Assembly (NCBI GenBank): GCA_964390695.1
Contig: CAYMKI010000002.1
Span: forward strand, 6,716 to 70,715
Length of the DNA stretch: 64,000 nucleotides
Reading direction: 5' to 3'
DNA from: an uncultured bacterium
GTDB taxonomy: Bacteria > Chlamydiota > Chlamydiia > Chlamydiales > Parachlamydiaceae
The notes beneath the pieces were generated by a model. That model saw only the letters and a list, made by a program, of their open reading frames with translations. It was not told where the DNA came from and did no database searches. The position numbers were made by a program, and so were the translations under genes. This document shows, piece by piece, positions 1 through 63,701 of the stretch. Position 1 is the first letter of the stretch. Each line of letters begins with the position of its first letter.

Positions 1-3000
1 ATCGTCCCTATCTAATGAGTGCGCAAGCATTCTTAAAAGAATTGACGGGAGAACAGCGTACATGATAAACCTAACTGTAAATCCTCCAGGATCATCTTTT
101 ACGCTATTAATCGTCTTCCTTAACCCTTGCACGGCAGCATTTGAAAATGGTAGCAATTGGTTAATCCACTTCATCTGCTCACCGGCTACAGCAAAGTCTA
201 GTAAGTCGCGAGATTTGAATGAGGCGTAAAGCATAGCGTTATAATCGTCTAAATCTTTAGACTTAGCTTCTTTGAAAGAACTTCTGTACTGCTCTAATCG
301 AGTAGCTATTTCTCCGCTTGCTATTAAACTCCCGTACCAGTCGCTAACATTGCTCAACATTTTTCCGGGAGTTGTAATGATGTTGTTTTTGTCCTTCGCT
401 AATTCTCGAACTGCTTTATCTAACTCCTTGTAGTAAAAATCCTCACTCATTAAATAATACCCTGCTTGCCCTCCCCCTAGACTATTGTAAGCCTCTAATG
501 TTTGTTGTTTAAGATTTCGATTAATGTTTATGTCGTGCCCCGTAAACGCATTTGGTGACATTACAAATCTCGCTTGAATATCTCTAATTCTATTTTTAAT
601 CGCGAATACAGGGAAATTAATAATACCCCATCTAAGTAGGCTAGGTAGCGCTGTCAAGTATGGAGAAAGTTTTACGTTATCGGTTATATTTTTTACCGAT
701 TTGTAAACATCCGAATTTAACTTCCAATATTGTTTTTTTCCTTTATCAAATATGGTAATGGTGTTGTCTCCTGTTGATCCAACTTGAGTTCCTATTGAAC
801 CTAAAAATTTAGGATCACCTTCGTGCATTCCCCTAGCATGTACTAATAATTCTTTGAACGCTAAAAGAACATTATTCCTGTCTGACTCTCTTATTACATT
901 GGCCGTATTTCCTATTAATGACTCGTAAGGATTCTTTATTGTTTTGCTACTTCCTTTCTGTTTGTAGATTATCTCTTTAACAGAAGCTAAAGCTCCACCA
1001 GTGCTTTTTGTAAAACTAACTACCTCTTCATCTGGGGAAGATTCTGATATTCTTTGCAATGCAACATATTCTAAGTTTGTAGATTTTATTTGATTATATG
1101 ACTCTTCGCTTAATCGTCCGCTTGCAACAGCTATTTTGAGTCCAGCATCTGCGTACTCTTTATAACGTCTGGCTGACTCTTCAATTCGTTTTTTTGCATC
1201 TGGATTTTCTTGTGTGTGCTCATCTAATCTTTTATTGGCAATTGTTAAGTCTTGAAATACACCTGCTCCTGTACCAGTTAAAAAGTCTTGTCTATTTAAC
1301 TTAGAAGACATCTCAACGGTTCTTTTTGCTACCATGTAGCTAATCACTTTTTCTTGTTCATCCTTTATGGATTTTTCAGTAGAGTTGTCAAGGGATGAAA
1401 TGAGCCACTCAAAATTCATTGCCTCGCCAGTCTGCCTATCTATCAACCTATTTAATTTAGGCGCATTAGGGTCTGATGAATCAATGGGGTTATCCGGATT
1501 GATAAAACCGTTCTCAAGTATGTCTTGTATCTTACTGTTTTCCCCGGCTAATAATCTAGCAAGCATAACAGGGTCTTTCGAAGGCATTAACTTATCAATA
1601 CCTTTTTGATCTAACAAAAATTTTACGCCCTTCTGAAATGGCAATAAAGTATTCAGCCATTGTTGAGATAATCTATCAAAAATAGTCAGTTCAAAATTTT
1701 CTTTGGTAGGATTTCTCAATAGATTAGTAAAAAATCCTTTTGCTTTTTCTGGTTCAAACTGAACGTTAGACATTATTTGATGATGTCCCGACAACCCAAC
1801 GAATTTCCGAATGTCGTCACCAAATTTCCTAAGTGCTTCCTTTGTCTCACTCGGCACTGTACCCTCGAAAAGTTTTGATGTCTCAGGGTATTGTATAGAC
1901 ACCTCTGATGGGTTCACCATCCATGCCCTTATGTATTCAGCAAGACCTTCACTTAATTTATAGGCTTTCTTGTCAGACACGCCTTTACGTGGCTTAGAGC
2001 CAAATTTGCCTAGTTTATTAAGCTCTTTTTCTATGGCTGGATTTATCTTTCCTAATAAGTCAAATAAATCATCTATACTGTGCCCGACTTCGTGAGCGGT
2101 AGTGTCAAGATCACCTTGGAACTTTATTGCTATGGCTGCATTTGTAGACCGATATACCCCTAAAGCATTTCTGCGCGTGGTATTTTTTACGTAGTAGATT
2201 TTTGACTTTATGGTTTTGGAGAGGTCAATTACTATCTGCTTTAGCTTTTTTGGTTCCGCACCGTAAATAGGACTAACCGCAATACGCTCGGTTTTGTTTT
2301 TCCTTTTTGGAGATCCTATTGGGGGCTGATAAATTTTTTGAGTGCTGGCCTGCTCACCCTCATATGGATTAATATCCTTTTCTTCAATCTTCCAAACCGT
2401 CCCAGTAGTCGATTTGATTTTATATTTGCTATTCTCAAAAGTTTGTACTGTTCCTTTCGCATAGCTTCCGCTAGGAGTTATAAACTCTACAACATCTCCA
2501 CTTTTATAAGTTGTTTCCGCATCTTTTGAAATGTCTAAGTTTTCAATTTCATTTCTTTTATTCACTACCTCTTTTATCGTTTCATTAGGTATTTCTTGAA
2601 CATTTTTAAAATTAGTTTCTTCCAACTTATTAACAGAATTTATCAGGTGTGTGGAGTTTTTAAATCCATTTTCTTGAGCAATTATATTTGCTAATTTTTT
2701 CCCTTCTTTTTGTAATGTTTCATTTTTGATTTCTTCGCTTGAATATTTAATCTTTTGCTCATTGAAATATTTCTGACTTTCCTCATCCACAAATGGATTT
2801 TCTCGGTCTAGCATTGGGTCAATATAGCGGATGTTCCCTTCTGTATCTTTTATTACATTTTCTCCATGAACATCCGTAAGCCTTATCCCTAAATCAGGAT
2901 TATAAAATTGATTTTGACCGAGTGAACCTTCTGGGTGTATTTGAAAAAACCCACGTTTTGATAAGTCTTCAATTAATTCTGATCTTGGTACTGGATTTCC

Positions 3001-5649
3001 ATCAATATATGGCTGCTCGGAAACCGCTGATAGCCTACCTCCTTCTTTAGTAAATCCGATTAAATCATAAGATGTTTCAGGGAATAATGTTTTTTGAAGG
3101 TTGAGCCTATCCCAAAATTCAGACCATGAACCATGATTTGATAATCCATTTACTTTTATAACTTTATCCCCTTCTTTGTTTAGATAAACATCTTGCTCAG
3201 TCCCTCCATCTATTTTTTCACCAAGGTCTTTTTTTATGTCCTCAATGAATACCCCTGATTTTCTGGCATAAGACTCAAGTTCTTTATCTTGTTCTTTCTT
3301 TAATTGCCTTGTGCTTCTCTGTGCTCCTTTAATCTTTGGGATTGCTTCTTGAACTGATCTGGTGATGTTTTCCGCATCTTCTTGTTTGATTCTGCCTCCC
3401 TTCGGTTCTGTTCCTCGTGATAAGGGGTTAACTTCATTTCTGGTTTCATTGCTTTCTGGATTAGTTTGATTTAATGTTGGTTTTGTCTCAATTGCACCAC
3501 CTCCACTTTCAATAGGCTTAACTGGTTCTTCAACCGCTGGTTTTGCGGGTTCTTCTTTAACTGGTTGAACAGGTTGACGAACTTCTTCCTTAACTGCTTC
3601 TCCTGTGGGCTCATTTGGTTTTTCGCCTTCTTGGTAACGAACGTTTATCTTTACTTTTTGATTGCCATCTAAAATGTCCTTAGCAATTCTATGGTGCCCG
3701 TCAGTGATTACATACTTATCACCTTTTTTGATAACGGTTGGAATTCTACTGCCGGGCGAAGGGACGTAGTATTTGGAGACAAATGGTTGAGAGGGGGCTA
3801 TTTTATTAATGTCAATCTCTTCTTGAGAAGTCACATTTGACATTTCCCCTATATCTTCATAAGGATTTTCAATAGGCAATTTGAAGATATCTTTGGTAGA
3901 TATCCTTTGATCTTTTCGAATTGATTGTATTTCCCTCTCTAATTTAGCAACCTGTTTTGTTTTGTATTCTGCGGTATTGTCGTAGATACTTGTTAACTTA
4001 TCTTCTTTCGCTTTCAGTTCGCTAAACTCTTTTGGAGGATTATTTAAATCAACCTCTTCTATTTTGAGTGCTTTTTCTTTTTTCGGTTCGGCTTGTACTT
4101 GAACACTCTCTTTTTGAATATCTTTTGGAAGTGGCTGACTATCTCCTTTTCCAGTTGGCTCAACTTTAATTTCATTGGCTTGGCTTTTTAAGTACTCATC
4201 CAATATTTTCTTTGTCTCATACCGATCCTCAGTGCTCATGTTTTGCATGGCGCCCATAACTCCGGGCATCACAAATCCAACTACGAAGCCTGCGCCTGCA
4301 CCTTCAAGCATTCCTGATTTTAAGTCTCTCTCCGGATCGTATGAACCTTGCGCAATCTTGTTGGTCAAGTATTGCTGAACTGCTTCTTGGCTTGCCTCTT
4401 CTAATCCCTGAGCCGTTCCTTGTGCTGCGGCTTGTTTAATGGTTCCGATAAGTCCATTGCCAGTAACCTTGTTCAATCGAGTGAACATATTGGCTACCGG
4501 TATGACTTCCGTTAACCCTCCTGGAATGTTCTTTAGGAATACCGAGAACGCTTCATCATCTGATTTGCCTGCTGCCTTAGCAGCTTCATACTCTGGCACC
4601 GAAGCCTGCAAAGCTCCACTCACGGCCATGGGAGAAGTTAATGTGCCTACTAATTCTCTGCCTATGGATTGCTTCACAAGTCCCGTTTCTGCTGCGGCTG
4701 GGCCACCAGTCATAATCATTCCGATCATTGAGCCAAAGGCGCTGGGAACGGCTGAATTAAGAAATCCGGCTCGCTTCTCATCAATGGCCGTAATTCCTAT
4801 CTCTAAGGCTTTTTTGTCAATCCATTGCCCTAGTTGATAGGTGCTATAATTTTCAACTGGCCCATTATCAACGCCTGTTAAATCGTCAAGTTTTTTTGCG
4901 AGGATACCTACTGCCTTTGGGATAGATGTAACCGCTCCAATAAATGCTTTGTTGAATGAAGGGGCAATTTGCGAAGCATCCGCAACTATCTCACCGACAA
5001 AACCTTGATTCTCTCTCTTTCCAGTAATTTCTTCCTGAAATTCACCTACAACTCTTCTGGCATTCTTTTCAGCATCTTGAGCCCTCATAACTTGAGGGAT
5101 TTTCAAGTCTTTTATAAATGGATTCTTGAGCCCATAGTTGCCCTTGGCATCATCCTCCATGAATTGCTTGTACTGATCCTCTTGAATTGATTTAGGAAGA
5201 ACAAACTGATCTTTGTTAAGATTATCAAGAGTTTTTTGCTTGTCCTGTTCTTCTGTAAGTCCGTTATCCATTAACGGAATCTGTATGGGCTTACTTAAAT
5301 CAATCTGTCCGGGCAATCCTAATGGTTGAGGATCAGGAATATTTGTCACTAATGGCTCTGAAAAACCTTGCTGCGTACTCAAGCCATTCAGCAATTCTTG
5401 AGGAGATGAAATACTTTGCTTTTCTGGACCAACCACGCCAATAGGTAGCGCTGAGTCTTTTTTTTTTACTTTATTCTCAAATTCTTCAAATGATCCCAAT
5501 TCATATTCCTGCCCTACGCCATCGTAGAAGGCTTTCCTTTTAGATGGGTCTTGTAGTTTGGCTGCAAATTCTTCCAATGTGCCTACATCATACTTTTTAG
5601 ATACGGCTTCATGGAGAATTTTGATTTTATCTTGTTTTGGGTCGAACAT
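1..5649 (-). CDS. giant multidomain polyvalent-type virion/injected protein, partial (>=1883 aa; C-terminus lies beyond the window edge)
   Basis: Hand translation of the reverse strand from the ATG at 5649 (TAATG overlap with the upstream stop) finds no stop down to base 1 (5649 nt = 1883 codons). The ORF track omits it because it is open-ended. No other minus ORF >=60 aa exists in 5.6 kb. Gly/Ala-rich hydrophobic N-region, then ParB-like, kinase-like and HExxH modules. Confidence 0.8.
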   Translation of the reverse strand, partial: MFDPKQDKIKILHEAVSKKYDVGTLEEFAAKLQDPSKRKAFYDGVGQEYELGSFEEFENKVKKKDSALPIGVVGPEKQSISSPQELLNGLSTQQGFSEPLVTNIPDPQPLGLPGQIDLSKPIQIPLMDNGLTEEQDKQKTLDNLNKDQFVLPKSIQEDQYKQFMEDDAKGNYGLKNPFIKDLKIPQVMRAQDAEKNARRVVGEFQEEITGKRENQGFVGEIVADASQIAPSFNKAFIGAVTSIPKAVGILAKKLDDLTGVDNGPVENYSTYQLGQWIDKKALEIGITAIDEKRAGFLNSAVPSAFGSMIGMIMTGGPAAAETGLVKQSIGRELVGTLTSPMAVSGALQASVPEYEAAKAAGKSDDEAFSVFLKNIPGGLTEVIPVANMFTRLNKVTGNGLIGTIKQAAAQGTAQGLEEASQEAVQQYLTNKIAQGSYDPERDLKSGMLEGAGAGFVVGFVMPGVMGAMQNMSTEDRYETKKILDEYLKSQANEIKVEPTGKGDSQPLPKDIQKESVQVQAEPKKEKALKIEEVDLNNPPKEFSELKAKEDKLTSIYDNTAEYKTKQVAKLEREIQSIRKDQRISTKDIFKLPIENPYEDIGEMSNVTSQEEIDINKIAPSQPFVSKYYVPSPGSRIPTVIKKGDKYVITDGHHRIAKDILDGNQKVKINVRYQEGEKPNEPTGEAVKEEVRQPVQPVKEEPAKPAVEEPVKPIESGGGAIETKPTLNQTNPESNETRNEVNPLSRGTEPKGGRIKQEDAENITRSVQEAIPKIKGAQRSTRQLKKEQDKELESYARKSGVFIEDIKKDLGEKIDGGTEQDVYLNKEGDKVIKVNGLSNHGSWSEFWDRLNLQKTLFPETSYDLIGFTKEGGRLSAVSEQPYIDGNPVPRSELIEDLSKRGFFQIHPEGSLGQNQFYNPDLGIRLTDVHGENVIKDTEGNIRYIDPMLDRENPFVDEESQKYFNEQKIKYSSEEIKNETLQKEGKKLANIIAQENGFKNSTHLINSVNKLEETNFKNVQEIPNETIKEVVNKRNEIENLDISKDAETTYKSGDVVEFITPSGSYAKGTVQTFENSKYKIKSTTGTVWKIEEKDINPYEGEQASTQKIYQPPIGSPKRKNKTERIAVSPIYGAEPKKLKQIVIDLSKTIKSKIYYVKNTTRRNALGVYRSTNAAIAIKFQGDLDTTAHEVGHSIDDLFDLLGKINPAIEKELNKLGKFGSKPRKGVSDKKAYKLSEGLAEYIRAWMVNPSEVSIQYPETSKLFEGTVPSETKEALRKFGDDIRKFVGLSGHHQIMSNVQFEPEKAKGFFTNLLRNPTKENFELTIFDRLSQQWLNTLLPFQKGVKFLLDQKGIDKLMPSKDPVMLARLLAGENSKIQDILENGFINPDNPIDSSDPNAPKLNRLIDRQTGEAMNFEWLISSLDNSTEKSIKDEQEKVISYMVAKRTVEMSSKLNRQDFLTGTGAGVFQDLTIANKRLDEHTQENPDAKKRIEESARRYKEYADAGLKIAVASGRLSEESYNQIKSTNLEYVALQRISESSPDEEVVSFTKSTGGALASVKEIIYKQKGSSKTIKNPYESLIGNTANVIRESDRNNVLLAFKELLVHARGMHEGDPKFLGSIGTQVGSTGDNTITIFDKGKKQYWKLNSDVYKSVKNITDNVKLSPYLTALPSLLRWGIINFPVFAIKNRIRDIQARFVMSPNAFTGHDININRNLKQQTLEAYNSLGGGQAGYYLMSEDFYYKELDKAVRELAKDKNNIITTPGKMLSNVSDWYGSLIASGEIATRLEQYRSSFKEAKSKDLDDYNAMLYASFKSRDLLDFAVAGEQMKWINQLLPFSNAAVQGLRKTINSVKDDPGGFTVRFIMYAVLPSILLRMLAHSLDRDD
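2040..2200 (-). other. HExxH zincin-like metallopeptidase module inside the giant ORF
   Basis: FQGDLDTTAHEVGHSIDDLFD. The HEVGH codons lie at 2080-2094. Confidence 0.5.
2806..3270 (-). other. protein-kinase-like module inside the giant ORF
   Basis: GGTEQDVYLNKEGDKVIKVNG (nucleotide-loop/Lys-like) ... LTDVHGENVIKDTEGNIRYIDPM (HxxN catalytic-loop-like plus a DP metal site). Resembles polyvalent-protein kinase domains (from memory). Confidence 0.5.
3631..3800 (-). other. ParB/sulfiredoxin-like nuclease module inside the giant ORF
   Basis: Translated segment ...IPTVIKKGDKYVITDGHHRIAKDILDGNQKVKINV. The DGHHR codons lie at 3688-3702. Confidence 0.65.
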
Positions 5650-37988: not shown

Positions 37989-39479
37989 TCAAAATGGCGT
38001 TTCAAAATCATCTTTGGGCAATTCCGAAGTAGGATCTTTGTAGCGGCTCGTTCCAAACTCTTGTCTTTTGGTTGTGGTCATTGGTGTTGAGTCGCTGATC
38101 CATTCGGTGAACTTGGTGTACTTGCCGATGAACTTCTGTTTTGCGGTGCCGGTTGAGCCTGCTCGGTGTTTTTCTATGATTGCTTCGCAGAGTCCATGTG
38201 TGGAATATCCATCTTCATCCTGAGTGATTTTATAGTACTCGGGCCGGTATAGGAACATAACCACGTCAGCTTCTTGCTCAATAGATCCTGACTCACGTAA
38301 ATCACTTAGCTGCGGTCTTTTTACTCCACCCCTTGTCTCCACTGATCTGCTAAGTTGTGAAAGTGCGATAACTGGAATGTCTAATTCCTTAGCAATTCCT
38401 TTCAATGTTCGAGTGATTGATCCTATCTCTTGATCCCGAGTTATCTGCCTGCCAGTTTCATTCACCCCTTTTATTAATTGTAAATAGTCAATGATAAGAA
38501 GTTTGATTCCATACTTAGTCTTCATTCTCATGGCGCGAGCACGAAGCTCAATGATAGTCAGGAATGGACTATCGTCAATATGCAAAGGAAGACTGGCAAT
38601 TTTTCCAATAAATTCATTCAATCTATCTTGTTCGTATCTGTCTAAAATACCCTTCTTTATTTTTTCTGAATCAATCTCTGCCTCGGATGCAGAAATTCTT
38701 TCAACAAGTTCCAAATCTCCCATCTCAAGACTAAATACACCAACCGGATTTCCTGCCTTTGCAACATTAACCCCTGCTTGCATGGCAAAAGAAGTCTTTC
38801 CCATGCCCGGGCGTGCCGCAATTATTATCAGGTGAGTTCGAACAAATCCATTTAGAATCCTGTCTACCTCAAGAAAACCACTTGGAACACCCATGGTAAC
38901 CCCAGACTGCCTTGATTTTATCTCGTTCGATAAGGCATAGCATATATCCACAATCGACTTATCTCCTTTCGCGCTGATCGCATGGTCCTGAATCTCTTGC
39001 AGGCGGAGGTTTGTTTTGGCTACAATTTCAAAAACATCTGAGGTATCTTCGTAGGAATCTTGGTGCACCTCGGATGCCATTTGGATCATCTCGCGTTTCA
39101 TGGCCATCTCGACTAGGATTGCCGAGTGATAAGCGATGTTTGCGGCTGAACTAACCTTTGAAACAAGTTCAGCTATGTAATAAGCCCCTCCAACAAGTTC
39201 TAACTTACCATTCTTCTTGAGACGAGCCACAACTGTTCGCATGTCAATAGGATTGGCCTCTGAAAATAACTGCTGAATTGCCTCGTAAATTGTCGCATGT
39301 TGTTCCTTGTAGAACATTTCCTTGCGAAGAACTGAAGCTACGTCAATGATTGCGTTCTTCTCGCACATTATTGCCCCAAGAACTGCTTCTTCCACGTCTG
39401 TTGCCTGCGGTGGAACCTTGCCCAGCGTTGATGCCAAGTCAGTGACGTACTTAACCGGATAGTTTTTTCGTTCGCTCAT
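37989..39479 (-). CDS. dnaB: replicative DNA helicase (DnaB family)
   Basis: 496 aa; LIIIAARPGMGKTSFAM Walker A; LLIIDYLQL; SQLSRSVE; typical DnaB N-terminal domain. Confidence 0.9.
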   Translation of the reverse strand: MSERKNYPVKYVTDLASTLGKVPPQATDVEEAVLGAIMCEKNAIIDVASVLRKEMFYKEQHATIYEAIQQLFSEANPIDMRTVVARLKKNGKLELVGGAYYIAELVSKVSSAANIAYHSAILVEMAMKREMIQMASEVHQDSYEDTSDVFEIVAKTNLRLQEIQDHAISAKGDKSIVDICYALSNEIKSRQSGVTMGVPSGFLEVDRILNGFVRTHLIIIAARPGMGKTSFAMQAGVNVAKAGNPVGVFSLEMGDLELVERISASEAEIDSEKIKKGILDRYEQDRLNEFIGKIASLPLHIDDSPFLTIIELRARAMRMKTKYGIKLLIIDYLQLIKGVNETGRQITRDQEIGSITRTLKGIAKELDIPVIALSQLSRSVETRGGVKRPQLSDLRESGSIEQEADVVMFLYRPEYYKITQDEDGYSTHGLCEAIIEKHRAGSTGTAKQKFIGKYTKFTEWISDSTPMTTTKRQEFGTSRYKDPTSELPKDDFETPF

Positions 39480-41634: not shown

Positions 41635-42054
41635 TTATTGTGCTTGTTTAAGTTCGCGCATGATTGTGTACTGCCGCTCCTCTGGAAGCATTGGTCGGCT
41701 GTTTACTACGGTGCCGTCCGGAGCCACAAAGTGCATGGCATGATTCTCGTAATCGGGAATCTTGTGGGTTGGGCCAGTAACCTCAGTAGCCTTCAATTTG
41801 ATGGCTTTAAGGTTTTCGGAGAACGATTTTGTCAAAGGATCAATCTTGTCTTTGTAATCCTTTTTCACCTGAGCTAACTCATCTTCTAATACTGATTTTT
41901 GCATAGCTGCCTGTGCTAAATCTTCTCGTTTGATGTTTAACTCTTCTTCGGTTAGCGGTTTCATGTACGTGAGGTCCTTGACCTCCGTAGAGTAAGAGGC
42001 TATAAAGTCCGCTCTTTCTGGCTCGCTCATTTTTGACAAATCAAAAATATTCAT
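41635..42054 (-). CDS. hypothetical coiled-coil protein
   Basis: Start refined to MNIFDLSKMSEPE (42054). Confidence 0.5.
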   Translation of the reverse strand: MNIFDLSKMSEPERADFIASYSTEVKDLTYMKPLTEEELNIKREDLAQAAMQKSVLEDELAQVKKDYKDKIDPLTKSFSENLKAIKLKATEVTGPTHKIPDYENHAMHFVAPDGTVVNSRPMLPEERQYTIMRELKQAQ

Positions 42055-42086
42055 AAGATTAAAATTGGTTTCAACTAAAAAAGTAT

Positions 42087-42190
42087 CCCGCCACACACGA
42101 ACTAAAGACGCGAATCAAATGTCAAAGCAAAAGCCTTGAAATGTTGGTGTGTGGACGGGAATGTTTTTAATGTCTCTCATTTGATTCGCG
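42087..42190 (-). promoter_or_regulatory. two interleaved inverted repeats (A-B-A'-B') ending in a U-tract: pseudoknot or attenuator-like RNA element
   Basis: A 42178-42190 / A' 42109-42121 give a perfect 13 bp. B 42146-42159 / B' 42087-42099 give 12 bp with one bulge. A T-run follows on the reverse strand (42077-42082). Confidence 0.55.
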
Positions 42191-42228
42191 ATGGCAAACA
42201 TACAAAAAAATCTATCTAAACAAAATTT

Positions 42229-45015: not shown

Positions 45016-46007
45016 GGCTTTACATTTCTTTCAAGTGTGGCAATAACATCTCCTTTCTTAATCAGCAGGTATTTTTTGCCTGCAAGTTCTATCTCCTGAC
45101 GGTCGGACTGACCAAAGATAACCGTAGTGCCAGGATTAAATTCGCTGTCGCCTTCGTGCACAACTACACCTTTTTTGGTCATTTTCTTTTTCATGAATAT
45201 GCCGGAAACAGTTGAATCCGGTTCATCGAGTGCGGAAACCAGCATGTGCCCTCTGATCGGGGTGAACTCGCCATCTACCTCTTTGGCAACAATATGGCGC
45301 TGGCGGATGGCAAAGTACTCGGTATTCTCAATCTTGTTGATCCAGTCTGCATTCCTGCGGTACCATATCTTTTGACCCACCTCTACCTCAACTTTGTCTC
45401 CAATCAGTGGACTTCCAATGTGCCGGACAAAGCCTACCAAGAACTTGTACTCGGGCTGCACCTTGCGCTGGATCCATTGATCTTTGGGTTTGGGGATTAG
45501 ATTGCCGTCCGCATCCTTTAGGTTGGTCATAACTGGCAACAGGATATCATCCCACGTCTCAAAATCGGGGTCAATTAGAACATACGAACCGATCGGAATG
45601 ATTACGCCATCCCGGACGGCACAGATAATCTGCTCGTAGCTTACCTTAAAATACCATGTTTTGTTGGGGTGCACACCTTCTTCTTTGACAAGGTTGCGCA
45701 TCATCATGGTGTTAAAATGGAAGTATATGCGGCTACCGACCTGCACTTCTTGGACTACATCAGAAGTGTACTTGTAATCAAATGGGCTGCTATCTGCCGG
45801 TGCCGGGCTGCCACGGTGCTCTTGCATGAATGGCTTTCTTGTTAACTGGAGCGGTAGCGAAACTACTTCTCCGTAGGTCCTAACATGCCTCTGAGGGTCA
45901 AATTTAGGGTCGAGGAATATCTCCTTCCCGTCTACACCTTTAAAGCTCGCTTTATCATTGAAGAGCGCATCGGTTTTAAATATGAGATAGTTAGCAAATG
46001 GCTTCAT
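45012..46007 (-). CDS. hypothetical protein with up to three GroES-like beta-barrel repeats
   Basis: YGEVVSLP...VGSRIYF; VGFVRHIGSP...VGQKIWY; KGVVVHEGDSEFNPGTTVIFG...KKYLLIKKGDVIATLE. Confidence 0.45.
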   Translation of the reverse strand: MKPFANYLIFKTDALFNDKASFKGVDGKEIFLDPKFDPQRHVRTYGEVVSLPLQLTRKPFMQEHRGSPAPADSSPFDYKYTSDVVQEVQVGSRIYFHFNTMMMRNLVKEEGVHPNKTWYFKVSYEQIICAVRDGVIIPIGSYVLIDPDFETWDDILLPVMTNLKDADGNLIPKPKDQWIQRKVQPEYKFLVGFVRHIGSPLIGDKVEVEVGQKIWYRRNADWINKIENTEYFAIRQRHIVAKEVDGEFTPIRGHMLVSALDEPDSTVSGIFMKKKMTKKGVVVHEGDSEFNPGTTVIFGQSDRQEIELAGKKYLLIKKGDVIATLERNVKP

Positions 46008-46558
46008 ACATACTTAAATTTAAATCTTTGCTCCGTGGATTGGACTCCATTTCGGTACAAAAAAATTTTGTACACTGTTCTTTTTATATTTCTATGATTT
46101 AAAAAATCAATAATAGAATCAAATGTAATCTCGGAATTTAAATCAAATACCTTTTTTGCCATAGGATGATTTCCTTTTGTAGGATGATATCTACGATTGT
46201 TTATTTCGGCATGATTTATATTTTCTTTTGCTGTACACCATTCTAAATTGTCAACATTGTTATTTAATTTGTTGCAATCCTTATGATTAACAAAAGGTTT
46301 GTTCTCAGGATTAGGTATAAAAGCAATAGCAACTAATCTGTGGGCTAAAAAAGTATATCGAACCGAATTATCTTGTAATCCTATAATTCGATACCCATTC
46401 CATATTAAACTACCAACAATTTGTTTTCCTACCCAAACCTGTTTCCTTCCATTTTTTCTAATAATGGTTCTGTTGATTGATTTTACAACTCCCTTATTTG
46501 ATACTAAATAGCTTTTTTCAAACCCAACAACTGGTCTCCAAATTTCCTGATCTTCCAT
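46004..46558 (-). CDS. HNH homing endonuclease (NUMOD4 + HNH)
   Basis: Start refined to MEDQEIWRPVVGFEKSYLVSNKG (46558); HRLVAIAFIPNPENKPFVNHKDCNKLNNNVDNLEWCT. Confidence 0.8.
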   Translation of the reverse strand: MEDQEIWRPVVGFEKSYLVSNKGVVKSINRTIIRKNGRKQVWVGKQIVGSLIWNGYRIIGLQDNSVRYTFLAHRLVAIAFIPNPENKPFVNHKDCNKLNNNVDNLEWCTAKENINHAEINNRRYHPTKGNHPMAKKVFDLNSEITFDSIIDFLNHRNIKRTVYKIFLYRNGVQSTEQRFKFKYV

Positions 46559-46670
46559 AAAAAAAGTATCCCGATCAAACAAGGCTTGTCCACCGCTGAG
46601 AATCAGCATGAGGCATGTAAGACCGGGAATATTTTTAATGTTTTCATAGTGAACAAGCATCACAAAGATA

Positions 46671-47258
46671 TTATTTTTTAGTTAAACTCCTATAATCAGC
46701 CACTACCTTCTCCGTTTTGGTCAGAAGTAGCTTTTCAATCTCCTTTGTGTAGTGATCAATCATAACATCACACTCGACTTTCCCGAGCTTTGTAACCTTG
46801 CGAGAAGCGGATATCATCAATGCCCAGGTTCCGGCTCCATGTAGCTTGTCCATCTCCCTTTCAAATACTTCGCGCATTCCGCCTTCAAATCCATTGCATT
46901 TTTTGCATTGAAGTCGGTTATTAATCTCGTTGTACTTGGTTCCTTTGTGCTGCCGGCCTGCACCATGGCCGCAATCAGCATGGCGCCAATATTTGAAAAG
47001 AGAGCATGTAAAGCATTTTCCTATCCCTTCCGCATTAGAATCGCGTAGGCGAATATACCGGCTGAACACGGGCCAGAGGTACAATTCATCGTATGCTTTC
47101 TTGGGTTTTAGTTTCTTGGGGGCCTTTCGTTCCGGTTTTGGCTGCTTGCAGAACACACAATTTTCCTCCAATGGGTCGTTAATGCGCTGGCATGAACAGA
47201 TCCACCGTTTGGGTTTAAGGCTTTTTTTGCCCCTGTTAAGAAAATCGTAGTAAGGCAT
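46671..47258 (-). CDS. NinG/Rap-like recombination protein
   Basis: Cys clusters, FSRYIRLRD...CFTC...ADCGH...QCKKCNGFEGG pattern. Confidence 0.55.
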   Translation of the reverse strand: MPYYDFLNRGKKSLKPKRWICSCQRINDPLEENCVFCKQPKPERKAPKKLKPKKAYDELYLWPVFSRYIRLRDSNAEGIGKCFTCSLFKYWRHADCGHGAGRQHKGTKYNEINNRLQCKKCNGFEGGMREVFEREMDKLHGAGTWALMISASRKVTKLGKVECDVMIDHYTKEIEKLLLTKTEKVVADYRSLTKK

Positions 47259-47282
47259 TAGACTTGGTTAGTCAGTTGTTTC

Positions 47283-47308
47283 AAAAAAGGGGCGGCAATT
47301 ACCGCCCC
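47283..47308 (-). terminator. intrinsic terminator
   Basis: Reverse strand GGGGCGG-TAATTG-CCGCCCC followed by TTTTTT. Confidence 0.8.
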
Positions 47309-47470
47309 CGGCTTCATCTTTGGCAGGGCTTTTGCAAGGCCGTACTTAGCGCTTCTAAGGTTTTCGCTTGCCAAGGCTACTTCCCAGATACCGATGGTTT
47401 ACTACGGCTCACCATCTTCAACACTTCATGCAATGTTCTAAGCCCCTATCTTTGGTATAACTGGTTTCTC

Positions 47471-47497
47471 AAAAAATGGCCGGGAATCTACCCGCCC
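47471..47497 (-). terminator. internal terminator-like hairpin within the ncRNA unit
   Basis: Reverse strand GGGCGGG-TAGATT-CCCGGCC (one G-G mismatch) followed by ATTTTTT. Confidence 0.45.
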
Positions 47498-47632
47498 TCA
47501 ATCATCTATCATCGTTGGCCCATCTATCGGCCCTGAAGTTCACCGTAAGCGGCCCTACCTCCGCTTTGAGATTTTTAACCCTATTCCTTGGGGATGTTCT
47601 TCCCTGCTTGCCGAGTTGAATCATCAATGAGA

Positions 47633-47663
47633 CAAATGTAAAAAATATCATCGAATTTACAAA
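47633..47663 (-). promoter_or_regulatory. Bacteroidota sigma-A-type promoter (TTTG-N19-TACATTTG)
   Basis: Reverse strand reads TTTGTAAATTCGATGATATTTTTTACATTTG. It matches the -33 TTTG / -7 TAnnTTTG consensus and spacing. Confidence 0.6.
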
Positions 47664-47719
47664 TATCTATTAAAATAAAAGTTCACATTCTTTAATTAAA
47701 ACAATTCAACATATTCAAT

Positions 47720-47896
47720 TTATGGAATTGCTTTAACTTTCACCTCTCCTTTGCCATCGCATAGCAGGCATTTCCGGTCCTTTTTGGTGTGCTTGTCGCG
47801 AACCTCACCACGGCCAGAGCATACAGGGCAAGTCTCAGCATTGATTTTTCTTTGTTTCTTAACCCTGTTCATTTTAGGATACCATGTTGTGCCCAT
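47720..47896 (-). CDS. 58-aa DnaJ-type zinc-finger mini-protein (below the ORF-track cutoff)
   Basis: Hand-translated MGTTWYPKMNRVKKQRKINAETCPVCSGRGEVRDKHTKKDRKCLLCDGKGEVKVKAIP. It has two CxxCxGxG motifs and is preceded by a terminator and the ACAACTGTATG start context. Confidence 0.5.
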   Translation of the reverse strand: MGTTWYPKMNRVKKQRKINAETCPVCSGRGEVRDKHTKKDRKCLLCDGKGEVKVKAIP

Positions 47897-47910
47897 ACAG
47901 TTGTTGTTTT

Positions 47911-47936
47911 AAAAAACCCAGACCGCCAACTGGGTA
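47911..47936 (-). terminator. intrinsic terminator
   Basis: Reverse strand ACCCAG-TTGGCGGT-CTGGGT followed by TTTTTT. Confidence 0.65.
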
Positions 47937-52733: not shown

Positions 52734-52807
52734 ATAAATAAGTGAAATATTTAAGAAAAAAGCCTGTATAAGTGCACTTTTGAGGAATCTTCCACAAATG
52801 AGGGGGC

Positions 52808-52896
52808 CAAAAATCGCGTCCCCGAACGTTTTTAAAAGAGGGGGTGGGGGTCGATTCCAAAGCGCAATCGCGGATTTTTGAAAATGTGGCCACCTT
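52808..52896 (+). repeat. three spaced copies of AATCGCG
   Basis: AAAAATCGCG at 52808-52817, AATCGCG at 52865-52871, AAATCGCG at 52888-52896. Confidence 0.6.
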
Positions 52897-52927
52897 CTAA
52901 AATCGCGCGAAAACTAACTTTATCAAG

Positions 52928-52954
52928 TTGCATAGTTTTATATAAACTGTGCAA
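52928..52954 (+). promoter_or_regulatory. operator/promoter A: TTGCA-N17-TGCAA
   Basis: TTGCATAGTTTTATATAAACTGTGCAA. It faces the repeat region and no ORF follows. Confidence 0.6.
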
Positions 52955-53023
52955 AATGCTGAAAATAGGCCACTATCGCATGAATGTGTGATTTTTGGTC
53001 TCAAATATCGTTCTCCACCAGTA

Positions 53024-53275
53024 AAAATGAGGGTTTTTGCAACAGTGTTGCATCTTGAGGATTTTGTGCAGATATGCACATGAAAATGATGTTTTCGCAG
53101 TAAAAACGAGGTTTTATTGTGCATATGCTATTATTTTTTAGTGTTTGTTGAGGATTTTTCAATTGTATTCGGGATTTTATTGAGAGTATTTCAATGAAAT
53201 GGTGGATTTGTTGATAGGAATGAGGTTTTGTGATGTGGTGCGCACCAATTTATTTATAGAACGTGGTTTTTGGGC
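53024..53275 (+). repeat. array of at least nine same-orientation GWGGnTTTT(G) repeats, several followed by short palindromes (iteron-like)
   Basis: Copies start at 53029, 53057, 53088, 53108, 53150, 53171, 53202, 53222 and 53263. Spacings are 28, 31, 20, 42, 21, 31, 20 and 41 bp. The plus strand is very C-poor. Confidence 0.7.
53037..53052. promoter_or_regulatory. near-copy of the palindrome (TTGCAAC-AGT-GTTGCA) inside the iteron-like array
   Basis: TTGCAACAGTGTTGCA. Confidence 0.5.
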
Positions 53276-53310
53276 TTTTTTTTAGGATAATGCTTTAAAA
53301 TGGGCTGGAA

Positions 53311-53460
53311 ATGGCGCGCATCGTTTTTTTGTTTTGTCTGGCTGTTTGTTCTTCGCTGGCTTCCGCCTGCCTGCTGCGCTGTCTCTGCCTTTCCTTCGGG
53401 GAACCACTTCTTTTGCCGAGTGACGGATCATCTTTCTTCGGGCCGATAGAGAGTGAGGCT
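53311..53460. other. GC-rich pyrimidine-skewed core of the non-coding region
   Basis: Local GC is clearly above the flanks. Contains a cUUCGg-type hairpin (CTTTCC-TTCG-GGGAA) and CTTCGGGCCGATAGA (53436-53450). Confidence 0.5.
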
Positions 53461-53496
53461 AAAATTACGATGGCTTGGAGAGGCTATAATGAGGGG

Positions 53497-53610
53497 AAAA
53501 TGTGGGGTTGATTTTGCGGGTAGTAAAATGGGTTGAAAAGTGGTGCGATTTCGGTAAGGTCGGTAAAGTTGGGTTTTGGGGCAAAGTGGGAAATTAGCGA
53601 AATAAAGGGG
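53497..53610 (+). repeat. phased A-tract/G-tract repeats AAA(A)(T/G)(T)GGG
   Basis: Copies start at 53497, 53525, 53536, 53565, 53583 and 53604. Confidence 0.55.
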
Positions 53611-53768
53611 GTCGAGAATCGAATATAGCCGTACAAAGGTACAGGATTTGGCGAATATCGCGGTGTGGAGCGTTTGGAACTGGTAATTTGAGTAAAATAG
53701 GTATTTTGGTGGTTTTCAGACATTTAATATAGAGAAATTAAAAAATATCAACATTTGTTTGCATTGAA

Positions 53769-53795
53769 TTGCATAGTTTACTTATAATTGTGCAA
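53769..53795 (+). promoter_or_regulatory. operator/promoter B: TTGCA-N17-TGCAA, upstream of the rightward gene block
   Basis: TTGCATAGTTTACTTATAATTGTGCAA followed by the TTAACCAAAA leader and an ATG at 53819. Confidence 0.65.
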
Positions 53796-53818
53796 GAATT
53801 AACCAAAACAACAATTTT

Positions 53819-54504: not shown

Positions 54505-54942
54505 ATGAGCACAAGAGCAAACATTATTGTGAAAGAAGGAAATGAAAACCTTATTTTTTATCGCCACAGTGACGGTTACCCAGAAGGTACGATTCCTTCT
54601 TTAAAAAAGTTTGTCGATTTAATGAAGTCTGGCGTTGTCAGGAACAATATTAGCCAAGGTTGCGGCTGGCTTATTATTTTGGGTGCACTAGAATACGCAT
54701 CTATTCCAAGAATATTGGAAGCAGATGAAGACGGAAGCCCGAAGACATGGGAAGATATTCTTATAACAGATTGGAAGGTTGGAGCCTACGAGCCAACAAC
54801 AGGGATACATGGAGACATTGAGCACCTGTACTTGATTGACATGGATTTATTTAAGATTACAGAAATTCAAATAACCAAAAATTGGAAGACGGCAAAAGTC
54901 TTATACGTCCATTATGACGCAAACTCCACTAAGGGAGTATAA
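54505..54942 (+). CDS. hypothetical protein
   Basis: 145-aa ORF (IFYRHSDGYPEG...). Confidence 0.55.
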   Translation: MSTRANIIVKEGNENLIFYRHSDGYPEGTIPSLKKFVDLMKSGVVRNNISQGCGWLIILGALEYASIPRILEADEDGSPKTWEDILITDWKVGAYEPTTGIHGDIEHLYLIDMDLFKITEIQITKNWKTAKVLYVHYDANSTKGV

Positions 54943-54962
54943 AGTTATTAGGCTTAGTGCGT

Positions 54963-54978
54963 CCTGCCTTCGGGCAGG
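54963..54978 (+). promoter_or_regulatory. perfect cUUCGg tetraloop hairpin
   Basis: CCTGCC-TTCG-GGCAGG, followed by GGTTAACCAAAC. Confidence 0.6.
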
Positions 54979-55010
54979 GGTTAACCAAACAAAGTCCTTC
55001 GGGCAACAGT

Positions 55011-55112
55011 ATGAGAAAATTAAAATCAGTTATCCTTTCACTCACTTGGATAGATGCAGTTCTTTGGGCTGCGCCTGCCACACTAATCCTAGTTTCAACC
55101 CTAAACAAGTAA
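55011..55112 (+). CDS. 33-aa hydrophobic mini-protein (below the ORF-track cutoff)
   Basis: Hand-translated MRKLKSVILSLTWIDAVLWAAPATLILVSTLNK, placed after the hairpin plus leader motif. Confidence 0.35.
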   Translation: MRKLKSVILSLTWIDAVLWAAPATLILVSTLNK

Positions 55113-55118
55113 TTCGCC

Positions 55119-55436
55119 ATGGCAAAGCAAACATTCGACATTGGCATTTATCACTTCCACCGCACCATCAGCGGGCCCCAATGCAAAGATGATGGCAAAA
55201 TGAAGCAAGGAGACGTAATAGGATGCCTTCATCCTCTCTACGATCACCCAGTTTTTGCCTATGGCATTCATCAACAGAGCAAAGACTCGGTACAACTTGT
55301 ACGCCAAAACCTGCGGTTCAAAAAGATCATCACTTTGAACTATACGCCAGACTCCAACGAGTTGGAGATGCACACAAAGCTAAATGTAATGCTTAATTTC
55401 TTGGCCGATCCATCTAAACAACTGCAAATCGTATGA
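55119..55436 (+). CDS. hypothetical protein
   Basis: 105-aa ORF. Confidence 0.5.
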   Translation: MAKQTFDIGIYHFHRTISGPQCKDDGKMKQGDVIGCLHPLYDHPVFAYGIHQQSKDSVQLVRQNLRFKKIITLNYTPDSNELEMHTKLNVMLNFLADPSKQLQIV

Positions 55437-62609: not shown

Positions 62610-63701
62610 ATGACCCCCAGAGTAACCTTCCGATCCATTAAGGATCATCTGAAAATACGAATCAAGATCCACGGACAGAAGCCCAGTTCCTACGACACTG
62701 GTATTTTCTGCCCTGCCGACAAGTTCGATGCTAAAAAGCAAATATCCGGCTATCCTCAAGTCCAGACCTACATGCAGTCAACAACTGAGGCTATCCGCAA
62801 GATGTTCATGCCAGGCGCTACGGCTGAATCCCTCTGGACTGAGCTTCTAAAACGCCAATCTATTGCCAATGGCTCACACAAAATTTCAGACGCATTCGAA
62901 TACTACCTGCGGACTGCTGACGTAACAGAGTCAACGAAAACAGGTATTCGCACCCTGCAATCCAAACTTGAGTTATCTGGGCTCTACCAACTCCCCATTA
63001 AGGATTTGACCGGAGCCAAAGTGCGCGAGTTCTTAACAGCATTGAACCTGAAAGAATCAACCACTTACAAAAACAATTCAAAGCTCAATACCATTCTGAA
63101 GAGATACTTGTCCGATCAGGGACTTGACATTAAAGTACCCAAGGCCGTGAGCAAGAAGCCCAAAGTATCAGATGAGGCCGAATACCTTATCTGGAATGAA
63201 CTCAAAGACCTACTTGCCAAAGAAGTAGAAGACGAAAGCGATAGCCGAGGTAAGGATCTGTGGTGTCTAATGGCTCTCACTGGACTTTCTGTTTCTGATC
63301 TTCTCAAGTTTGACCCCAAAAAGAACATCTCCGAGGATGGAAAGTGGGTGCACTACAACCGGAAGAAAACAGATAGCAAATGCACCATCCCTCTTCTGCC
63401 CATGGCAAAAGAAATAATCGAGCGCCATGACTGGCCGGCAAAGGTTTCTGTTCGCTGGCTGCAATACAAATCTACTGGCATTGTGAGTGAACTTGTTGGC
63501 CGAAAGATGAAATCCCACTCGGCAAGGAAGACATTTGGAACGGTGGCATTGGAATGGGGATACAGTTTAGATGCTGTCTCTAAGTTCTTAGGACACGCAA
63601 ATCCGATCATAACGGCCAACGTGTACGCCAAGGTCACACAGGCCAAGATTGAGCGCGAGATGAACGCTATCCCGGATAAAATAAAAGCAATGATGATATG
63701 A
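62610..63701 (+). CDS. int: tyrosine recombinase / phage integrase
   Basis: 363 aa; ...MKSHSARKTFGT (HxxR) ... LGHANPIITANVYAKV (catalytic Tyr); Bacteroidota-type N-terminal domain. Confidence 0.9.
   Translation: MTPRVTFRSIKDHLKIRIKIHGQKPSSYDTGIFCPADKFDAKKQISGYPQVQTYMQSTTEAIRKMFMPGATAESLWTELLKRQSIANGSHKISDAFEYYLRTADVTESTKTGIRTLQSKLELSGLYQLPIKDLTGAKVREFLTALNLKESTTYKNNSKLNTILKRYLSDQGLDIKVPKAVSKKPKVSDEAEYLIWNELKDLLAKEVEDESDSRGKDLWCLMALTGLSVSDLLKFDPKKNISEDGKWVHYNRKKTDSKCTIPLLPMAKEIIERHDWPAKVSVRWLQYKSTGIVSELVGRKMKSHSARKTFGTVALEWGYSLDAVSKFLGHANPIITANVYAKVTQAKIEREMNAIPDKIKAMMI

Follow-up and report, generated by a model that had tools for sequence, protein, structure and literature searches.

A modular non-coding cassette upstream of NinG in a Bacteroidota-type phage, homologous to phage initiator-tRNA cassettes

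We describe here a non-coding unit lying in a gene-free gap of 461 nucleotides (nt; 47259-47719) between a NinG-like gene and a small zinc-finger gene in a stretch of contig CAYMKI010000002.1, whose full 64,000 nt we call the window. Comparison of its sequence with that of related loci leads us to the firm conclusion that the unit is a modular cassette homologous to cassettes that carry an initiator tRNA in related phages. The initial annotation had put the gap at about 460 nt, as measured, and had read it as a single RNA of about 340 nt; the non-coding unit running from promoter to terminator stands, but three separately conserved modules take the place of the single RNA. On balance, and with somewhat better than even confidence, we favour a self-contained cassette in which a leader acts as a working small RNA, a trailer forms a second RNA and terminators limit read-through into NinG. 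The cassette is ordinary in kind (a phage tRNA/small-RNA cassette) and new in content, having no tRNA and having leader and trailer motifs that Rfam lacks. It lies between the early genes and NinG of a temperate phage of Bacteroidota type. Coordinates are collected in Table 1.

Table 1. Positions of the cassette elements and of the phage genes discussed, in window coordinates
Feature	Coordinates	Strand	Description or basis
Promoter, Bacteroidota sigma-A type	47663-47633	minus	TTTG-N19-TACATTTG; pattern scan
Conserved 5' leader	47539-47628	minus	about 85-90 nt; covariance model R1 and comparison
5'-proximal hairpin	47627-47616	minus	TTGA/TCAA
P1	47604-47591	minus	GGGA/TCCC
24-nt core	47593-47570	minus	CCCCAAGGAATAGGGTTAAAAATC
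P2	47566-47561 / 47552-47547	minus	AAGCGG, 8-nt loop, CCGCTT
Module 1 hairpin (within 47502-47538)	47532-47529 / 47520-47517	minus	GGCC/GGCC, loop GATAGATG; read from the sequence
A/G-rich box of module 1	47513-47502	minus	GATGATAGATGA
Internal terminator t1	47497-47471	minus	GGGCGGG/CCCGGCC, loop TAGATT, then A and T6
Trailer domain, W type	47446-47325	minus	about 120 nt, multi-stem fold; homology and pairing comparison
Trailer closing helix	47446-47440 / 47331-47325	minus	GGGGCTT/AAGCCCT
Trailer H3	47416-47411 / 47398-47393	minus	GATGGT/ACCATC
Trailer H5	47359-47355 / 47349-47345	minus	CTTAG/CTAAG
GATGAAG box	47318-47312	minus	just before t2
Strong terminator t2	47309-47283	minus	stem-loop 47309-47288, T6 47288-47283; terminator scan
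NinG-like gene	46671-47258	minus
Zinc-finger gene	47720-47896	minus	58 amino acids, CXXCXGXG
DnaB	37989-39479		downstream of the unit
Integrase	62610-63701
Phage genes of the window			DNA methylase, DUF3127 SSB-like protein, NinG/Rap, HNH/NUMOD4 endonuclease, Cpn10-like protein, DnaB, then structural genes

Relatives and variants of the cassette

NinG homologues were collected, their contigs fetched and pattern scans added, and this brought to light the unit upstream of NinG in 11 more loci, all on metagenomic or uncultured viral contigs; the pattern scans, which covered viral, genome and metagenome collections, contributed L052-L055 alone. Among GenBank phages only the tRNA part is shared with the cassette, and 185,579 species genomes yielded nothing beyond chance matches to it.

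An initiator-like tRNA-Met(CAT) follows the leader in L001, L046/L047, L048, L049/L050, L052, L055, L060 and L062 (called by ARAGORN; Rfam scores of 56-61 bits). It sits between the leader and a trailer and is counted here as seven distinct forms from nine loci. Both printed Rfam alignments (L060 and L062) have a 1:72 mismatch, and the printed sequences of six of the seven forms have an anticodon stem of GGG/CCC; these two features are marks of initiator tRNA. Rfam scans of the relatives found no family other than tRNA. ARAGORN calls no tRNA gene in the window, in L037/L038 or in L053/L054, and the tRNA model (RF00005) has no match at E<=10 within 47100-47900, so that by our definition of membership (a cloverleaf of at least the 29-bit gathering score, or an ARAGORN call) the window unit contains no tRNA. 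A degenerate tRNA was rejected as well: neither ARAGORN nor the covariance model gives a signal, and the one T-arm-like hairpin is t1, which matches the terminators of L037 and L052 by eye.

The variants differ in what follows the leader. The minimal form, in L037/L038 (NinG 85% identical), consists of leader, hairpin, GATGA box and terminator in about 175 nt. L052/L055 carry a short trailer whose hairpin, GATGA-type box and terminator match, by eye, module 1 and t1 of the window, and the leader of L053/L054 is followed by about 110 nt and a hairpin that lacks a T run. Set against these variants, the window unit is composed of the leader, a short trailer with t1 and a W-type trailer with t2, the tRNA having been replaced.

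Promoter and leader

The promoter matches a strict pattern, TTTG-N17-21-TAnnTTTG, which a regular-expression scan of intergenic minus-strand sequence finds three times in the 64 kb (at the cassette, at 52734 and at 42224). Its -33 TTTG (47663-47660) and its -7 box TACATTTG (47640-47633), 19 nt apart, are kept at equal spacing in all 11 relatives while the spacer sequence varies, which bears out the near-consensus Bacteroidota promoter that had been proposed. The Bacteroidota sigma-A consensus, as given in PMC7366714 and PMC9723704, comprises a -33 TTTG and a -7 TAnnTTTG box at -12 to -5. Because the -7 box occupies those positions, the transcription start is predicted at A47628.

A covariance model built from the leader (R1) was run on the window and on the relatives' loci, and it finds one high-scoring copy per locus (69-89 bits) in 12 loci including the window, always upstream of NinG. 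The window leader scores 77.1 bits and is the single copy in 64 kb; R1 finds there no credible second copy in the style of nutL/nutR. The only other match, of 18.5 bits (E=0.042), lies in the single contig behind L001 and L035.

Within the leader the most constant part is the core, CCCCAAGGAATAGGGYTAAAAATC, which is 92-100% identical across loci (with a 1-nt deletion in L049) and identical to the window at 24 of 24 positions in L001, L046 and L060, all of them tRNA-bearing. The DNA of NinG is 48-70% identical to that of the window in the ten more distant relatives and 84% identical in the closest, L037. That the core is kept far better than the adjacent coding DNA suggests purifying selection on it, at the level of RNA or of DNA sequence. 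Most predicted folds of the relatives leave the core mostly unpaired.

The helices around the core behave differently: identity in the P1 and P2 regions falls to 31-68% in the ten more distant relatives, yet both still fold. The first hairpin, 3-8 nt from the predicted start, has a different sequence in every lineage (for instance GCGAATTCAG/CTGAATTCGC in L049 and GTTGATGTT/AACATCGAC in L052), and P1 is likewise a hairpin in each lineage with a lineage-specific sequence. P2 pairs at 100%, with double changes in four of its six pairs, as compared to 16-44% pairing in a control with slid partners; its 8-nt loop is purine-rich and variable in sequence. Among the stems drawn in the initial annotation, AGCGG/CCGCT is thus P2 and is backed by covariation, and TTGGCA/TGCCAA is dropped, as it is not conserved by eye and, in an alignment by eye, is not kept in L062.

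Invariant junction nucleotides beside helices that change sequence and still pair are the pattern seen in ribozymes and aptamers, and the leader might accordingly be a new catalytic or ligand-binding RNA, an aptamer or a ribozyme that cleaves itself, in which the invariant nucleotides would make up the active core between the covarying helices. Phage DNA and the neighbourhood of tRNA genes are frequent sites of small self-cleaving ribozymes, and this same phage carries a Pistol ribozyme at 54923-54985. We consider this explanation very improbable. No ribozyme or riboswitch model matches even at E<=10, neither a closing helix nor a pseudoknot was identified and the P2 loop varies; a riboswitch fits poorly in addition, since the nearest terminator in the tRNA-bearing relatives is about 250 nt away.

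Several further ideas were also considered and rejected. Pairing of the core with the conserved start of NinG or with the anticodon arm of the tRNA reaches at most 5-6 base pairs and is broken, without compensation, in GGGCUA variants (by eye). A CRISPR-repeat mimic (an RNA anti-CRISPR) was sought with exact and degenerate scans of the 185,579 species genomes, which returned single chance matches in coding DNA and no arrays. A CsrA-type GGA site is discounted, the GGA reading AGA in L037 and L052.

Terminators, module 1 and the trailer domain

The GATAGATG sequence was reported as duplicated, and it is indeed present twice, at 47528 and 47510. The layout of module 1 recurs in L037 (a GGCTC/AGCC hairpin followed by ATAGATGATAGATGA) and in the trailers of L052/L055, as judged by eye from few sequences. 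The internal terminator-like hairpin, t1, also exists as described: its stem of seven pairs has one G.G mismatch and folds at -12.3 kcal/mol, below the threshold of the terminator scan, and its absence from the scan list makes it probably leaky. By eye it corresponds to the terminal terminator of L037, L052 and L055, with a common TAGAT loop, and in our reading of the sequences of L037 and L052 it is their only terminator.

The strong intrinsic terminator noted at the end of the unit is confirmed as t2 (nine pairs, seven of them G-C; predicted -18.4 kcal/mol). An equivalent terminator stands directly before NinG in seven of nine distinct relatives; in L049 and L062 an extra element separates the cassette terminator from NinG, and the hairpin that precedes NinG in L053/L054 lacks a T run. 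From the start at A47628 and the positions of t1 and t2, transcripts of about 158 and 346 nt would be expected. The short form that the initial annotation had envisaged is probable, the L037 unit being just that form.

A/G-rich boxes of GATGA type lie 4-8 nt upstream of nearly every terminator stem of the cassette family, at 47513-47502 and 47318-47312 in the window and at the same position in L001, L002, L037, L039, L048, L052 and L062; no conserved open reading frame (ORF) explains them. A further terminator-like hairpin with a T run (47935-47916, minus strand) stands directly before the zinc-finger gene, as also in L037 and L046, and together with t1 and t2 it places NinG behind three successive same-strand terminators.

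The trailer of the window, which we call W type, has homologues in the RNA after the tRNA in L062 and in the region upstream of NinG in L039-L041. The proposed fold pairs 94% of cells, and sliding the partners lowers this to 31-48%; H3 shows double changes in three of six pairs (GATGGT/ACCATC against GTCCGT/ACGGAC). A second trailer of about 90 nt, the T type, follows the tRNA in L001, L046, L048, L049 and L060; it is closed by GGGGTTC/GAACCCC, and an inner helix has double changes in four of seven pairs. The 3' end of a non-coding region of about 520 nt in L002 aligns to the T-type trailer. That gene-free, GNRA-rich region (L002 2455-2975) lies upstream of NinG in a relative that is 65% identical and, in its remaining 350 nt or so, gives no Rfam match at E<=10.

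We asked at this point how far the unit might be a decaying remnant, that is, a cassette that once expressed an initiator tRNA and became a functionless relic on losing it. The tRNA is absent from the window and present in most relatives, the trailer helix Pe is paired at 4 of 7 positions, t1 is mismatched and the folding z-scores given below are unremarkable. Set against this, the core matches those of L001, L046 and L060 throughout, much better kept than the neighbouring coding DNA, and the promoter, P2, closing helix, H3, H5 and t2 are intact. Because three independent tRNA-less forms (the window, L037 and L053) all retain promoter and leader, a relic becomes less likely still, and we regard it as improbable.

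The extra element of L049 (2885-2975) and L062 (575-665) is a three-way junction of about 85 nt that is absent from the window and has no Rfam match. The two copies share the conserved strand TTCATCTATNNAGTTAAGCCCCCG and, by eye, changes in three of their stems compensate for one another (GACCG/CGGTC against GATCA/TGATC, AGCAT/ATGCT against AGTAT/ATACT, and GGAGG/CCTTC against GGTGG/CCACC).

Composition, coding potential and known families

The description of the unit as more GC-rich than its flanks holds only against the 91-nt promoter spacer (GC content 0.19); the unit has 0.49, the two flanking genes both have 0.45, and the window as a whole stands at 0.41. A search of 47100-47900 against Rfam 15 returned nothing even at E<=10, with only 9-bit noise. 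At gathering score the unit matches none of its families, including tmRNA, RNase P, 6S, introns, riboswitches, ribozymes, GOLLD, ROOL and HEARO, and the reported failure to match any RNA family is therefore upheld. By sequence, the unit has the parts of an intrinsically terminated small RNA gene, namely its own promoter, a Rho-independent terminator and no conserved ORF.

An ordinary small protein gene is a further alternative, and open frames do exist: 49 and 38 codons on the minus strand and 90 codons on the plus strand. The longest reverse-strand ORF is therefore longer than the 40 or so codons first reported, and it is not conserved among the relatives. It includes the promoter, within which it begins. 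None of the ORFs has a Pfam or PHROG match, no reading frame is common to the relatives, the frame in which the core would be read differs between the window and L001, and the core carries the deletion in L049. In L062 the antisense frame runs through the tRNA gene, and the H3 changes that compensate for RNA pairing are radical for the antisense peptide (DGLLRL against VRFLLL). A protein gene is on this evidence extremely unlikely.

An apparent recurrence of a 15-mer of the unit in the control region at 53436-53450 was rejected as chance: when the unit was shuffled 60 times, 56 of the shuffles had a best match to the rest of the window that equalled or exceeded the score of the real unit's best match.

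Possible function of the cassette

We propose that host RNA polymerase would start at about A47628 and that part of the transcripts would stop at t1 and the rest at t2. In every variant the leader keeps the same arrangement of a 5' hairpin, a nearly invariant 24-nt stretch predicted to be largely unpaired, and P2. RNase P cleavage at the tRNA 5' end would free the leader in the tRNA-bearing relatives, and in the window t1 would end the leader piece instead; as the leader is kept in all variants and would be released by one route or the other, we take it to be the working product, a stable small RNA that would offer its core to an RNA or a protein able to recognise that sequence. The trailer domain, conserved independently, would form another structured RNA. 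The homology, the modular build, the pattern of conservation, the covariation and the lack of a conserved ORF or known family are observed; the transcript ends, the stability of the RNAs and binding by the core are what we infer from the sequence.

The cassette may also bear on the expression of NinG. Only 25 nt separate the end of t2 from the NinG start codon and they hold no TAnnTTTG box, so that by sequence NinG is without a promoter of its own after t2. For this reason t1 and t2 would hold down transcription into NinG and the genes beyond, read-through of these terminators and of the one at 47935 would be needed, and the unit would in effect gate NinG.

Alternatively, the unit might be a cis-acting 5' leader of the NinG operon, whose promoter would then be that of the operon. 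It would stabilise the mRNA by means of its 5' hairpin or, in the manner of nut or put elements, load a host or phage factor with which RNA polymerase passes t1 and t2, with the tRNA and trailers as cargo in a 5' untranslated region (UTR). A single copy of the leader sits directly upstream of NinG in every locus, a position as compatible with action in cis as with a small RNA. The missing NinG promoter has the same bearing, and L053/L054 have no T-run terminator between leader and NinG, so that there the leader would simply be the NinG 5' UTR. Terminators at 47935, 47497, 47309 and 44718 lie inside a co-directional gene array, a promoter-proximal element before terminators is a layout compatible with antitermination of nut or put type, and the conserved linear box beside a hairpin is reminiscent of boxA and boxB. 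On the other side, nut and put elements come as a copy per early operon (nutL/nutR, putL/putR), but R1 finds one copy in 64 kb and no matching element follows the early promoter at 52.7 kb. No antiterminator protein was found: the zinc-finger protein matches only the DnaJ CXXCXGXG domain in Pfam and PDB, and its PHROG matches to Q-like families are weak (E about 4e-4). Moreover, some NinG homologues that are 73-79% identical (L042 and L051) lack the cassette altogether. We hold the operon-leader explanation as a tentative possibility, and a purely cis-acting role is rated only slightly lower than the self-contained cassette that we favour.

Other observations also weigh against the self-contained cassette. 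Folding of the single sequence is no better than that of shuffles (z of -1.17 for the whole unit, -0.44 for the short form and -1.08 for the trailer), and the structure is supported by comparison between loci only, not by the folding energy of the window sequence. The broken pairs of Pe suggest that the trailer module may be decaying here. No partner for the core was found. The best matches of the unit to the rest of the window span 11-12 nt, fall outside the core and do not exceed those of shuffles. The comparative set is small, with about four independent leader lineages and two or three W-type trailer sequences. With so few lineages, the double changes that the gathering of homologues revealed in P2, H3 and the T-type helix are suggestive and not statistical proof.

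A bolder proposal is that the leader, at about 85 nt, represents a new RNA class of Bacteroidota phages, built from a 5' hairpin, the invariant core and a hairpin whose 8-nt loop is rich in purines. It would be either a factor-loading element through which RNA polymerase disregards the terminators of the cassette or a small self-cleaving ribozyme that trims its transcript, and the trailer would be a second new structured RNA travelling with phage initiator tRNA genes. We offer this as speculation that is unlikely to hold.

Setting in the window

The genes from about 5.6 kb to 52.2 kb all lie on the minus strand, and the gene set looks like that of a temperate phage. From the type of promoter, and from our own reading that no Shine-Dalgarno sequence precedes NinG, the host was presumably a member of the Bacteroidota. 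The HNH/NUMOD4 homing-endonuclease gene (46004-46663, minus strand) separates NinG from a Cpn10-like gene of 331 amino acids and is an insertion relative to L037, L001, L046 and L048, in which those two genes are adjacent.

The third strict-consensus promoter (42224-42195, minus strand) is followed by a leader of about 120 nt (42224-42080) with a folding z of -3.77. Its long stems CGCGAATCAAATG/CATTTGATTCGCG and CCCGTCCACACAC/GTGTGTGGCGGG, the second with a T run after it, are interleaved, and the arrangement resembles a mutually exclusive antiterminator/terminator switch just before the gene at 41635-42096.

The Pistol ribozyme is full-length and on the plus strand (RF02679; it scores 47.2 bits, the gathering score being 34.5). 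No other Rfam family matches in the 64-kb window, and the ribozyme overlaps the ends of the ORFs 54505-54942 and 54914-55192. No ORFs of at least 90 amino acids occur in 52750-53800, a part of about 1 kb of the gene-poor region (about 52.3-54.1 kb) between divergent early genes, or in the first 4.4 kb or so of the window (1-4400); an Rfam scan of these two intervals gave no match.

Comparison with known systems

Lambdoid phages offer well known leaders of this general kind, for instance the PR'-qut-6S RNA-tR' arrangement, the nut and put elements, and the tRNA genes downstream of Q in Stx phages. The cassette resembles the lambdoid nin and late leaders in having a strong promoter and then terminators upstream of NinG-type genes, in a slot that accepts a tRNA and in a box beside a hairpin. 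Unlike them it lies among early or middle genes, is single-copy, has DnaB downstream and is accompanied by no Q or N homologue that we could find. A late leader of the lambda PR'/Q type was rejected: the unit does not head the late genes, being followed by NinG, the HNH gene, the Cpn10-like gene and then DnaB, another promoter (42224-42195) lies downstream, and no Q homologue was found beyond the weak PHROG matches of the zinc-finger protein.

Among trans-acting small RNAs of the Bacteroidota, GibS of Bacteroides thetaiotaomicron is reportedly an example. The cassette shares with RNAs of that type a sigma-A-type promoter, a short form of about 150 nt, an intrinsic terminator and a most conserved stretch predicted to be largely unpaired between hairpins; no target complementarity was found for it in the phage window, and it has no sequence similarity to them. 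As compared to GOLLD and ROOL, the cassette RNAs are likewise phage-borne, structured and tied to tRNA genes in the relatives, but they are much smaller (about 90 and 120 nt) and have no Rfam match at the thresholds tried.

Phage tRNA cassettes offer another comparison. The T4 tRNA cluster, with its "species 1 and 2" RNAs, provides phage stable RNAs that are co-transcribed with tRNAs, and the 3' external transcribed spacer (3'ETS) of E. coli glyW-cysT-leuZ is a sponge for small RNAs. The cassettes of the relatives are similarly built, with one promoter, then leader, tRNA, structured trailer and intrinsic terminator, and the pieces on either side of the tRNA are themselves conserved, as would be expected of products more than of plain spacers. 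The window copy departs from this plan in having no tRNA, and its leader and trailer resemble no described spacer-derived RNA in sequence or model. Co-transcription with a tRNA, as in RNAs of the 3'ETS type, is indicated by the layout of L001, L046, L048, L049, L052, L055, L060 and L062 and is not found in the window.

Many candidate structured RNAs of similar size are known from comparative genomics, and the finding is unsurprising in kind. A phage tRNA gene is commonly viewed as a tRNA and nothing more; in this group of phages, what surrounds the initiator tRNA is itself conserved, comprising two or three RNA motifs absent from Rfam and a 24-nt sequence nearly unchanged across diverged phages. 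As the unit sits on the route of transcription to NinG, it may also be a point at which the passage from early to middle gene expression is controlled in these little-studied Bacteroidota phages. The persistence of leader and trailers after loss of the tRNA, with promoter and terminators intact, suggests that tRNA cassettes serve phage small RNAs as a vehicle.

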